Source: an uncultured Anaerolineae bacterium (GTDB taxonomy: Bacteria > Chloroflexota > Anaerolineae > JAADDB01). Taken from it: a stretch of 12,373 bases of DNA. The position numbers and the translations under genes are program-made. Shown here in pieces: positions 4,527-5,696 of the stretch; within the stretch, counting starts at the first letter, position 1; each line of letters opens with the position of its first letter. The notes under the pieces were generated by a model. The model was not told the DNA's origin, did not search any database, and saw only the letters and a program-made list of their open reading frames with translations. Where the stretch lies: positions 1,838-14,210 of the forward strand of contig CAZAQA010000052.1 of NCBI GenBank assembly GCA_964487375.1, written 5' to 3'.

Positions 4527-5696
4527 GTGCCCGTGGACCTAAGTGGTCAGATGTATACCGCCTATCAACAAGCCCTGGCCCGGGCCAAGGTCCGCTTTCA
4601 GGAGGGCAGGTACGCAGAGGCTGCCGCGGCTTACCGCCAGTGCGCGCATCACCTGGAGCGTTACGCCTCCTACCTGCGCAGCGCTGAGGCGCGGGCCCGC
4701 TGGCGCAAGAAGGCCCAGGAGTACCGCCAGTTGGCGGAGAAGATCGAGGCCGGCGAGTTTGCCGTGCCCACGGTGGCAAGTGAAGGAGGCGCATCCCCCA
4801 CGGATAACTACGAGGAGGCGGTCATGGGTCTCATTCACAAGGCCAACGTCACCTGGGACGACATCGCTGGCCTCGAAGAGACCAAGCAGGAGATCAAGGC
4901 CGCGTATGGTCTGGCTCTGGCCAGGAAGCCGGCCGGTGTGCACCTGGACGCCTGGCGCAACATTCTCTTCTACGGGCCGCCCGGCACGGGCAAAACCCTG
5001 CTGGCCGCGGCCACGTCCAACGGGCTGGACGCGACCTTCTTCAGTGTCAAGGTGAGCGATCTCCTCTCCAAGTACTTTGGCGAGTCGACCAAACTTATCA
5101 GCGCCCTCTACAGCGTGGCCCGGCGCCTGGCCCCTTCTGTCGTCTTCCTCGACGAATTCGAGGCGCTGAGCCCGCCACGGGATGGCACCCAGAGCGGCGC
5201 GGAGGCTCGCATTGTCTCCACCTTCCTGGCGGAACTGGACGGCCTGGCTCGCAAGGGGGACAACACCTTTGTCCTCACCATTGCTGCCACCAACGTGCCC
5301 TGGCTCATCGACAAGGCCATCCTCAGTCGTTTTGAAAAACTCATCTACATTCCCTTGCCCGACGCCCCTGCCCGCCGGCGCATTCTGGAGATCGAGGTCA
5401 AACGCAAGGGACACCGCACTGAGGTGCCCTACCGGGAACTTGTGGCCCGCACCGAAGGATACAGCGGCCGCGAGATCTCCCAACTGGCTCGCGAGGCCAT
5501 CAAGGAGATGGTCAAGCGGATGAACCCCGACCTGGCCAAGGTGGTGGACAGGGGCCGCGAGGCGGTGTCCAACTACACCGTGCGCGTGGGGCCCATCAGC
5601 AAGGAAGATTGGGAGAAGGCGTTTAGCCGAGTAATGCGACGTACAACCGCCGCAGACCTCAGACGCTTCGAGGAATGGCGTCGTCATCTAAAGTAA
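4527..5696 (+). CDS. Vps4-like AAA+ ATPase of the meiotic clade with an N-terminal MIT domain
   Basis: GTG start at 4527 has a GGAGGTGG RBS. The MIT-like three-helix region (aa 9-75) reads [62 protein letters not shown]. Compare Vps4 AI.L..KA...D..G.Y.EAL.LY..A..Y.......E......K...R.K..EY..RAE.LK. Walker A GPPGTGKT is at 4974-4997. The pore loop is [11 protein letters not shown] (Vps4: SKWMGESEKLV). Walker B is VVFLDEFE. Sensor-1/second-region-of-homology reads [28 protein letters not shown] (Vps4: [29 protein letters not shown]). The C-terminal helix [30 protein letters not shown] matches the Vps4/katanin/spastin C-terminus. Confidence 0.9.
   Translation: [389 protein letters not shown]

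Follow-up and report, generated by a model that had tools for sequence, protein, structure and literature searches.

A 12,373-nucleotide (nt) stretch of DNA from an uncultured Anaerolineae bacterium (contig CAZAQA010000052.1, positions 1,838 to 14,210; "the window" is this whole stretch) encodes an ATPase of the AAA type. The protein contains an N-terminal MIT-like bundle, a linker, one classical AAA cassette, and a C-terminal helix. It is a member of the meiotic clade of AAA proteins. Within that clade it belongs to a large, unnamed family whose named members are mostly from Chloroflexota (Anaerolineae). By sequence comparison the family is probably a bacterial sister lineage to archaeal CdvC and eukaryotic Vps4 and an orthologue of neither. 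The order helix-turn-helix (HTH) protein, 200-amino-acid (aa) protein, ATPase recurs across the sampled loci. [quoted passage not shown]

Domain layout and clade of the ATPase

The window protein is 100% identical to database protein P0001 and to the product of a gene called on an independent 11-kb contig (L001). It has the marks of a classical AAA protein. PF00004 matches over the full profile (E 5e-35), and the Walker A and B motifs, the ATN motif, and the second region of homology (SRH) were all located and are conserved (Table 1). In pore loop 1, S181, K182, F184, G185, E186, and S187 are invariant in the family, and Y183 is at least 90% conserved. No transmembrane (TM) segment was found in the window ATPase by hydropathy and no protease domain by Pfam. 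It has neither the N-terminal TM segments nor the fused M41 zinc protease of FtsH.

The N-terminal region had been described in the first-pass annotation as an MIT bundle, and a fold of this type was found. The AlphaFold2 (AF2) model of the ATPase was built on a 50-sequence alignment and has a mean predicted local distance difference test (pLDDT) score of 83. It places three helices in this region. An hhalign comparison of the family N terminus with a Vps4/CdvC MIT alignment gave a probability of 91.4% (E 9e-7) over 61 columns in register. The reversed control gave 1.3%, and 20 column shuffles gave at most 0.5%. Pfam MIT matched 20 of 50 family members (best E 7e-5), and the window protein alone was sub-threshold (E 0.3).

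The C-terminal helix had been taken as a further mark of Vps4, and this held in part. Vps4_C matched 37 of 50 members (best E 1.3e-6), but the window protein was again sub-threshold (E 0.16). The helix is not specific to Vps4, because the C terminus of Cdc48-D2 aligns with it as well. Profile comparisons make the MIT and Vps4_C assignments convincing at the family level only. Ahead of this helix the family carries its own 26-aa insert, in which N333 is invariant and P334, V340, D341, G343, and Y350 are at least 90% conserved. The insert is mostly helical in the AF2 model (short helices at aa 336 to 341 and 344 to 348) and takes the place of the beta-domain that eukaryotic Vps4 has inserted in its lid, the Vta1-binding site.

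The placement in the meiotic clade rests on a short SRH without Pro-Gly, the ATNxPW motif, the MIT domain, and neighbour-joining trees. The family SRH reads ATNxPWxxDxAxLSRFxKxIYxPLP. It aligns gap-free with the SRH of Vps4, CdvC, katanin, spastin, and Msp1, and the RPGR form found in Cdc48, PAN, and FtsH is longer by two residues. Of the discrete characters, the SRH is the clearest.

Trees were computed from 229 AAA-core columns, with 91 domains in the full set. Sequences of Thaumarchaeota CdvC, archaeal PAN, and archaeal and bacterial Cdc48 were taken from genome loci. Three crenarchaeal CdvC sequences and yeast Cdc48 came from PDB alignments, and Escherichia coli FtsH came from an annotated genome record. 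The eukaryotic and other references (yeast Vps4, human VPS4B, spastin, katanin, FIGNL1, Msp1, PAN, Rpt1, and NSF-D1, with Snf7 and four CHMPs for the comparisons below) were validated against PDB sequences (~2.0 to 2.2 bits per residue).

The family was monophyletic with 100% bootstrap support. With all 91 domains it grouped at 64% with katanin, spastin, FIGNL1, Vps4, CdvC, and a second type of bacterial MIT-AAA protein. When the unstable Msp1 and NSF-D1 were left out, that clade was split from Cdc48 D1/D2, PAN/Rpt, and FtsH at 97 to 99% under three distance measures. Msp1 was not recovered within the meiotic clade. From these trees the protein is therefore a meiotic-clade AAA with a lineage of its own. 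FtsH-like, proteasomal, and CbbX-like classes were considered and rejected, as the AAA core groups with Vps4, katanin, and spastin.

These results bear on several statements of the first-pass annotation. It had suggested that the protein is a substrate-threading ATPase of the meiotic clade and no generic AAA, and the SRH of meiotic length and the separation from Cdc48, PAN/Rpt, and FtsH agree with that. A phylogeny of the kind it had proposed returned a separate bacterial clade, nested in neither archaeal CdvC nor eukaryotic Vps4, with no FtsH or proteasomal grouping. Its claim of orthologue-grade conservation with Vps4 is too strong and is not supported. The family forms its own fully supported clade, its identity to Vps4 is barely higher than to Cdc48-D2, and the best NCBIfam model, CdvC (NF041006), reached 191.7 bits against a cutoff of 650, followed by CDC48 (190.4) and PAN (178). 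Two segments had also been called near-identical to Vps4. Both strings exist (SRH string, aa 252 to 279; pore-loop string, aa 181 to 199), but only 18 of 27 and 10 of 19 positions agree with Vps4. Katanin equals or exceeds this (18/27 and 11/19). Cdc48-D2 agrees at 17/27, with its extra Pro-Gly taken out, and 7/19, and PAN agrees at 5/19 in the pore loop.

Over the AAA core (the 229 trimmed columns) the window protein is 42.5% identical to yeast Vps4, ~37% to CdvC, 39 to 41% to Cdc48-D2, and 28% to FtsH. The hidden Markov model (HMM) of the family core scored yeast Vps4 at 216, human VPS4B at 214, katanin at 206, Cdc48-D2 at 175 to 206, CdvC at 181 to 188, PAN at 158 to 182, and FtsH at 126. 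For single domains in the PDB sequence search, Vps4B/SKD1 was best (184 to 186 bits, vs 155.7 for Cdc48-D2). Cdc48/p97 tops the PDB list because the scores of its two domains are summed. Foldseek of the ATPase model against PDB placed katanin first (6b5c, E 2e-20), with p97-D2, Vps4, spastin, FIGNL1, and Metallosphaera sedula Vps4 near-equal. Vps4, katanin, spastin, and p97-D2 all had E values of ~1e-19.

The arginine finger and the lid arginine

Paired trans arginine fingers (RR) are a trait of the meiotic clade that the window protein lacks. The change of RR to S-R had been pointed out earlier and is correct, because S267-R268 aligns with R288-R289 of yeast Vps4. It is a family feature. Serine stands at finger 1 in 180 of 192 single-domain members, and only 5 of the 192 keep RR.

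The lid has changed in step. Its motif is GYSGREI here, compared with G-x-S-G-(A/S)-D in Vps4, katanin, Cdc48, and FtsH. All 187 members without the finger-1 arginine have the lid arginine, and 4 of the 5 members that keep RR have Ser or Ala there (Fisher p = 9e-8, uncorrected for shared ancestry). From motif alignment and established knowledge, we take R315 to occupy the position known as sensor 2 in other AAA+ clades. Classical AAA+ proteins characteristically lack the sensor-2 arginine (bioRxiv 10.1101/617159). We read the pattern as a probable exchange of a trans arginine (finger 1) for a cis arginine (R315), not as inactivation. Ser267 and the gained R315 therefore predict altered coupling between subunits and not a dead enzyme.

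As pure speculation, the conserved serine at the finger position might be a phosphorylation target, given the kinase genes near related operons.

The operon, its 200-aa product and the sister loci

The six genes of the operon lie on the + strand at 2474 to 11002, with the ATPase as gene 3. The intergenic gaps are 3, 10, 68 (or an overlap), 15, and 3 nt. This tight same-strand packing bears out the earlier description of a bacterial-type operon. The 718-aa product of the last gene contains, in order, a double zinc ribbon, an SPFH/Band_7 domain, a coiled coil of ~300 aa, and a C-terminal zinc ribbon. An Rfam search of the whole window matched no family.

Table 1. Features of the window and of sister loci (positions without a locus label are those of the window)
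Feature	Position	Strand	Remarks
HTH_17 gene, 478 aa	2474..3910	+	N-terminal HTH_17 (excisionase/MerR-type), Pfam E 4e-18; two Cys-rich modules; opens conserved triad
200-aa coiled-coil protein gene	3914..4516	+	10 nt 5' of ATPase gene; candidate partner/substrate
Shine-Dalgarno AGGAGGTG	4515..4522	+	Strong; 4 nt 5' of GTG start; overlaps stop codon of upstream gene; read from sequence
MIT-AAA ATPase gene	4527..5696	+	389 aa, GTG start, TAA stop; from open reading frame list; Pfam AAA E 5e-35, AAA_lid_3 E 7e-7
MIT-like three-helix bundle, aa 6-74	4542..4748	+	AF2 helices 6-25, 29-48, 53-74
Linker, aa 75-103	4749..4835	+	Poorly conserved, low confidence; disordered in AF2 model, pLDDT <50 at aa 79-92
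Walker A GPPGTGKT, aa 150-157	4974..4997	+	Family-invariant
Pore loop 1 SKYFGES, aa 181-187	5067..5087	+	Aromatic-hydrophobic pair Y183-F184
Walker B region FLDEFE, aa 207-212	5145..5162	+	D209 invariant; E210 at least 90% conserved
Sensor-1 N256 and SRH, aa 254-279	5286..5363	+	Meiotic-clade length, without Pro-Gly
S267-R268	5325..5330	+	Aligned to yeast Vps4 arginine fingers R288-R289; first finger replaced by Ser
R315 in GYSGREI	5469..5471	+	Lid position, Ala/Ser in classical AAA; invariant in family alignment
Family-specific insert NPDL..VD.G.EAV..Y, aa 333-358 (26 aa)	5523..5600	+	Stands where Vps4 has beta-domain
C-terminal helices including LRRFEEW helix, aa 359-389	5601..5693	+	Two helices in AF2 model
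HE(K/R)xGH protein gene, ~480 aa	5765..7204	+	Possible zinc hydrolase; motifs aligned in four orthologues
540-aa protein gene	7220..8842	+	Weak SPFH/Band_7 (Pfam E 8e-5, just under cutoff); two predicted TM segments, aa 321-347 and 352-377 (hydropathy scan)
718-aa protein gene	8846..11002	+	Pfam DZR E 1.5e-15, Band_7 E 7e-12, Zn_ribbon_15 E 1.3e-10; kept in L003 and L089
~204-aa protein genes	L003:11211-11825; L006:3465-4124; L087:11186-11833; also L105, L106, L118, L119, L121, L123, L093, L107, L035		
Second MIT-AAA genes	L003:11822-12922; L006:4146-5288; L035:4371-5507; L027:3740-4873		

The taxonomic and context surveys were samples, not censuses. Gene neighbourhoods were read from 44 metagenome loci anchored on the 200-aa gene and from four others, and 33 of these had flanking sequence. 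The ATPase gene adjoins the 200-aa gene in 29 of the 33, on its downstream side in 25 and on its upstream side in 4. The HTH gene usually comes first, and in many loci it is kept 5' of the coiled-coil gene.

The 200-aa protein is a member of an orphan family. When the profile of this family was run a second time against the database, it retrieved 185 proteins, and none of the 120 listed had a Pfam domain. It has the N terminus MALFDSVKGLL and an acidic C terminus. The N termini of the unvalidated reference sequences of Synechocystis Vipp1 (MGLFD) and E. coli PspA (MGIFS) resemble its MALFD. Its AF2 model (pLDDT 79) contains a short N-terminal helix, a hairpin (aa 23 to 60 and 64 to 106), short helices, and a long helix (aa 143 to 181). 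About 36 of the top 50 Foldseek matches in PDB were members of the ESCRT-III superfamily, with near full-length alignments. They include CHMP1B, CHMP2A/3, Vipp1, CdvB/B2, Snf7, PspA, and Asgard ESCRT-III. The likeness of the modelled fold to ESCRT-III is weak and at most suggestive.

In the C-terminal part of the 200-aa protein, conservation is highest at aa 164 to 179 (ED.D...I(V/M).AM.EA, here DKDIEEIVRAMEEA). This stretch has hydrophobic residues at i, i+4, and i+7 behind an acidic cap, which is the spacing of the ESCRT-III MIM1 motif. It is therefore a candidate MIT-binding helix.

Many loci add a module after the window-type ATPase. The module encodes a protein of ~204 aa and a second MIT-AAA protein. 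The ~204-aa gene lies downstream of the window-type ATPase gene, in most such loci between it and the second MIT-AAA gene. When the 204-aa family was compared by hhalign with an alignment of Snf7, CHMP4B, CHMP2A, CHMP3, and CHMP1B, the probability was 72% (E 3.3e-5) over 120 in-register columns. The reversed control gave 0.5%, and 30 column shuffles gave at most 0.9%. Pfam Snf7 matched 7 of 10 members and was the top or only match for most. The best match had E 3.8e-5 and 23.9 bits, against a cutoff of 27.3, and covered positions 3 to 157 of the 171 in the profile. Judged by these profile matches, the 204-aa protein is in all likelihood a divergent Snf7/ESCRT-III protein. Its N termini (MGIL.., MALF..K) and C termini (D..IE.GL+.I...L/M) look like helix alpha0 of ESCRT-III and a MIM1-type motif.

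The second MIT-AAA protein contains SKWVGEAEQNV, an RPGR-type SRH, and Vps4_C matches, and it groups weakly with CdvC in the trees. This type (as in L027 and L035), and not the S-R type, may be the counterpart of the bacterial ATPases that PMC11237479 calls "VPS4-like".

Searches with the window ATPase gave more than 5,000 database matches. The 120 best were full-length relatives at 53 to 100% identity. Those with a name came from Chloroflexota, Anaerolineae, or Anaerolineales metagenome-assembled genomes (MAGs) and were annotated only as "ATP-binding protein", katanin, or SpoVK/Vps4-type. Among the top 150 matches after clustering at 50%, ~80 were single-AAA proteins, many of ~390 aa, with identity down to ~38%. 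The sampled genome loci also held S-R-form relatives in two Alphaproteobacteria.

Several observations lie beside these results. Six relatives (P0219, P0236, P0244, P0246, P0256, and P0284) are 586 to 671 aa long and carry the S-R AAA core behind an N-terminal extension of ~300 to 400 aa. A Methanophagales (ANME-1) MAG encodes a truncated S-R copy of 269 aa (L009:78-887) that is 47% identical, is without the MIT domain, and nests inside the bacterial family. This copy may have arrived by transfer between domains, or it may be an artefact of binning. The flanks of L003, L004, L005, L087, and L035 contain Ser/Thr protein kinase, PQQ beta-propeller, vWA, and CHAT/TPR genes. Archaeal "Main"-clade ESCRT loci are likewise linked to Ser/Thr kinases (PMC10936438).

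Outside the operon, the window contains at 18 to 686 an open reading frame of right-handed beta-helix repeats (Pfam Beta_helix, NosD), whose counterpart in L001 is cut at the contig end. Two genes come next, ahead of the operon, and L089, the closest relative, is the only locus in which they are conserved. One (783 to 1673) encodes a staphylococcal-nuclease-domain (SNase) protein, and the other (~1721 to 2398) encodes a 225-aa protein with one TM segment and a coiled coil. Downstream of the operon is an IS200-like Y1 transposase gene (11692 to 12183; Pfam Y1_Tnp E 2e-20). It is flanked, at 11200 to 11680 and 12237 to 12373, by GC-rich palindromic repeats of several families (e.g., CCCGTAGGGCGACCCG/CGGGTCGCCCTACGGG). 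The palindromes look like REP-type elements with a RAYT-like gene.

Proposed function, alternatives and known systems

In the reading we favour, the ATPase would form a Vps4-type hexameric ring. Through its MIT domain it would be recruited by a helical motif of the 200-aa coiled-coil protein and in sister genomes perhaps also by the divergent Snf7-like protein. The 200-aa partner would build membrane-associated polymers. Pore loop 1 (K182-Y183-F184) would pull partner subunits through the pore, and the polymer would be taken apart or remodelled. In this the ATPase may cooperate with the membrane-anchored SPFH and zinc-ribbon proteins encoded downstream. The whole would be a bacterial counterpart of ESCRT-III/Vps4 and of PspA-SPFH membrane repair modules. 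We infer the oligomeric state, the binding of a partner by the MIT domain, the disassembly of a polymer, and the role at the membrane from the domains and neighbours described above. That the ATPase acts on an ESCRT-III-like substrate is plausible. The adjacent 200-aa protein offers a weak fold likeness without profile similarity, and sister loci carry a Snf7-like gene.

This reading comes from computation, and a number of results weigh against it. Most concern the proposed substrate. The best Foldseek E value for the 200-aa protein is 0.21, and no single match is significant. A Pfam search of 35 members, with E values up to 10, found neither Snf7 (PF03357) nor PspA_IM30 (PF04012) among the 25 most-matched families, and the family profile gave only chance matches among PDB sequences. 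In hhalign the family reached a probability of <1%, equal to reversed controls, against ESCRT-III and PspA/Vipp1 alignments that were thin (five PDB-validated ESCRT-III sequences and two unvalidated PspA/Vipp1 sequences). Against the 204-aa Snf7-like family the probability was 0.4%. The window itself is without the Snf7-like gene and the second ATPase of the sister loci. The alphaproteobacterial homologue examined, L007, has no operon partners, and the ATPase can therefore exist apart from the operon system.

Further points concern the ATPase. Raw core identity hardly parts Vps4 from Cdc48-D2, and Foldseek does not part Vps4, katanin, spastin, and p97-D2. Seven signature columns were informative between the meiotic proteins and Cdc48, PAN, and FtsH, and the family fits neither side consistently, apart from the Trp of ATNxPW. 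Within the clade, the grouping of the family with CdvC and the bacterial MIT-AAA proteins has 31 to 39% bootstrap support, and a Vps4 and CdvC group was not recovered. The trees are purely distance-based.

The main rival is a split form of FtsH/HflKC-like quality control, which we consider unlikely. The AAA protein would be an unfoldase that feeds the separate HExxGH protein, the SPFH pair would be a cage or scaffold, and the 200-aa protein would be an adaptor or regulator. FtsH itself combines an AAA cassette with a zinc protease and is partnered by the SPFH proteins HflK/C. In keeping with this, the HExxGH gene directly follows the window ATPase gene, and it is linked to one or the other ATPase type elsewhere (next to the second MIT-AAA gene in L087, and close to such a gene in L003 and L035). 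The motifs TVAHE(K/R)xGHGF and LLEEGWATWIE are strictly conserved in the four aligned orthologues of its product, and the HExxGH spacing recalls zinc sites of the M49/DPP3 type. Two SPFH-type proteins are encoded downstream, one of them with TM segments. Several results count against this arrangement, however. The HExxGH protein has no Pfam or NCBIfam protease family match. The AAA domain is far from FtsH (core HMM 126 vs 216 for Vps4; 28% identity) and lies apart from it in the trees. MIT domains are known to serve as adaptors for helical motifs of ESCRT-III-type proteins and are not known as protease-docking modules. The HExxGH gene is also a less constant neighbour than the 200-aa coiled-coil gene, which is the most constant of all.

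An anti-phage or other conflict system is less likely than split quality control, and we think it quite improbable. The ATPase would be IetA-like or another defence AAA, and the SNase gene, the HTH protein, and the mobile element would mark a defence island. PADLOC IetA scored 123 bits and NCBIfam IteA 112 bits, the HTH domain matches the MADS mad1 HTH, and the SNase gene and the IS200-like transposase gene lie on either side of the operon. Ser/Thr kinase, CHAT/TPR, and vWA genes flank relatives. The IetA scores are well under those for CdvC and CDC48 (191.7 and 190.4), and the IteA score is far below its cutoff of 510. No IetS-type serine protease partner is present among the Pfam, NCBIfam, and PADLOC matches of the window genes. 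The SNase gene is conserved only in L089, and the conserved core (HTH, coiled-coil, and MIT-AAA proteins, joined in some loci by SPFH/zinc-ribbon proteins) is the signature of membrane remodelling and not of nucleases or toxins.

Also less likely than split quality control, and the least probable of the three by a narrow step, is a true archaeal CdvC/Vps4 orthologue gained by recent horizontal transfer: CdvC is the best NCBIfam model, the layout of MIT, AAA, and C-terminal helix fits, the ANME-1 MAG holds the 47%-identical fragment, and several bacterial phyla are reported to have received Vps4-like ATPases from archaea by transfer (PMC11237479), but the family is a deep, diverse clade of its own with 100% support and is not nested in CdvC, identity to CdvC (~37%) is below that to eukaryotic Vps4 or Cdc48-D2, the model score is 191.7 against 650, the S-R pair with lid arginine and the insert at aa 333 to 358 are absent from CdvC, and the archaeal fragment is truncated and nested inside the bacterial family.

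The MIT-AAA remodelling module that we favour can be set beside several known systems. The ATPase shares with Vps4/CdvC the MIT bundle, the linker, the single AAA cassette, the C-terminal helix, a short SRH with ATNxPW, and the pore loop SK(Y/W)xGES.KL. Its gene also adjoins a gene for a small helical-hairpin protein and has an HTH gene upstream. The order in archaeal ESCRT loci is comparable, with a winged-helix protein, ESCRT-III, and Vps4 (PMC10936438). The window family differs in forming a separate clade with 37 to 42% core identity, in its S-R pair with lid arginine, and in the 26-aa insert for the beta-domain. The neighbouring 200-aa protein is not detectably Snf7/CdvB, and the family is hosted by bacteria, chiefly Chloroflexota.

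Katanin p60, spastin, and fidgetin fall in the same clade and share the SRH length, and katanin shares the two motifs noted above (18/27 and 11/19). MIT-type N-terminal domains are known in spastin and katanin too. These enzymes differ in that they sever microtubules via tubulin tails and keep RR; the window has no tubulin context. Cdc48/p97 D2 is similar in core identity (~40%), C-terminal helix, and near-equal Foldseek scores. However, Cdc48/p97 has two AAA cassettes, an N-terminal double-psi barrel, and an RPGR SRH, and it stands apart from the family at 97 to 99% bootstrap.

The PspA/Vipp1-SPFH system (Bacillus subtilis pspA-ydjGHI) and the archaeal "Meth_adaptin" loci resemble the window in that zinc-ribbon and SPFH/Band-7 proteins are encoded along with a small helical-hairpin protein. 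The Meth_adaptin loci carry an SPFH/coiled-coil/zinc-ribbon protein, and the window 718-aa protein has the layout described for this SPFH component (PMC10936438). In B. subtilis the SPFH protein YdjI is needed for PspA localisation (PMC10936438). Bacterial Psp systems differ in having no Vps4-type ATPase (PMC7619361). The Meth_adaptin loci differ in being archaeal and in having adaptin-like proteins, which were not found in the window.

Bacterial Vps4-like ATPases are not wholly new, because Ravi, Aravind, and colleagues reported MIT and Vps4-type AAA domains in bacterial "VPS4-like" ATPases (e.g., Opitutus ACB74714.1; PMC11237479). Those proteins are from a few phyla, among which Chloroflexi are not listed, and their partner, a TPR plus 6-TM protein, displaces snf7 (PMC11237479). 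According to a 2025 review, bacteria appear to lack a Vps4-like ATPase (PMC7619361). The literature searched contained no description of the operon studied here.

Among MIT-AAA proteins, the family is a new bacterial form with an unusual active-site arrangement, and it is more than a generic AAA. Going further, and here we lean slightly towards doubt, Chloroflexota (Anaerolineae) could possess an ESCRT-like machine of their own. It would comprise one or two MIT-AAA ATPases, ESCRT-III-type polymers (the 204-aa family, and the 200-aa protein as a member beyond sequence recognition), the HTH protein, and the SPFH/zinc-ribbon proteins. The window ATPase would then be the first known classical-clade AAA in which a trans finger is swapped for a cis sensor 2. 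The near-perfect covariation of the two arginines is a natural experiment that bears on inter-subunit coupling of ATP hydrolysis in classical AAA rings.

The finding matters because bacteria are commonly said to lack both Vps4/katanin-type ATPases and the pairing of such enzymes with ESCRT-III-like proteins. A large bacterial MIT-AAA family that is tied to a helical-hairpin gene, and in several loci to SPFH/zinc-ribbon genes, challenges such statements. The operon is compact and amenable to heterologous expression. It makes testable the disassembly of bacterial ESCRT-III-type polymers, and with it the question of whether ATP-driven ESCRT-like remodelling is older or wider than the archaeal lineage.

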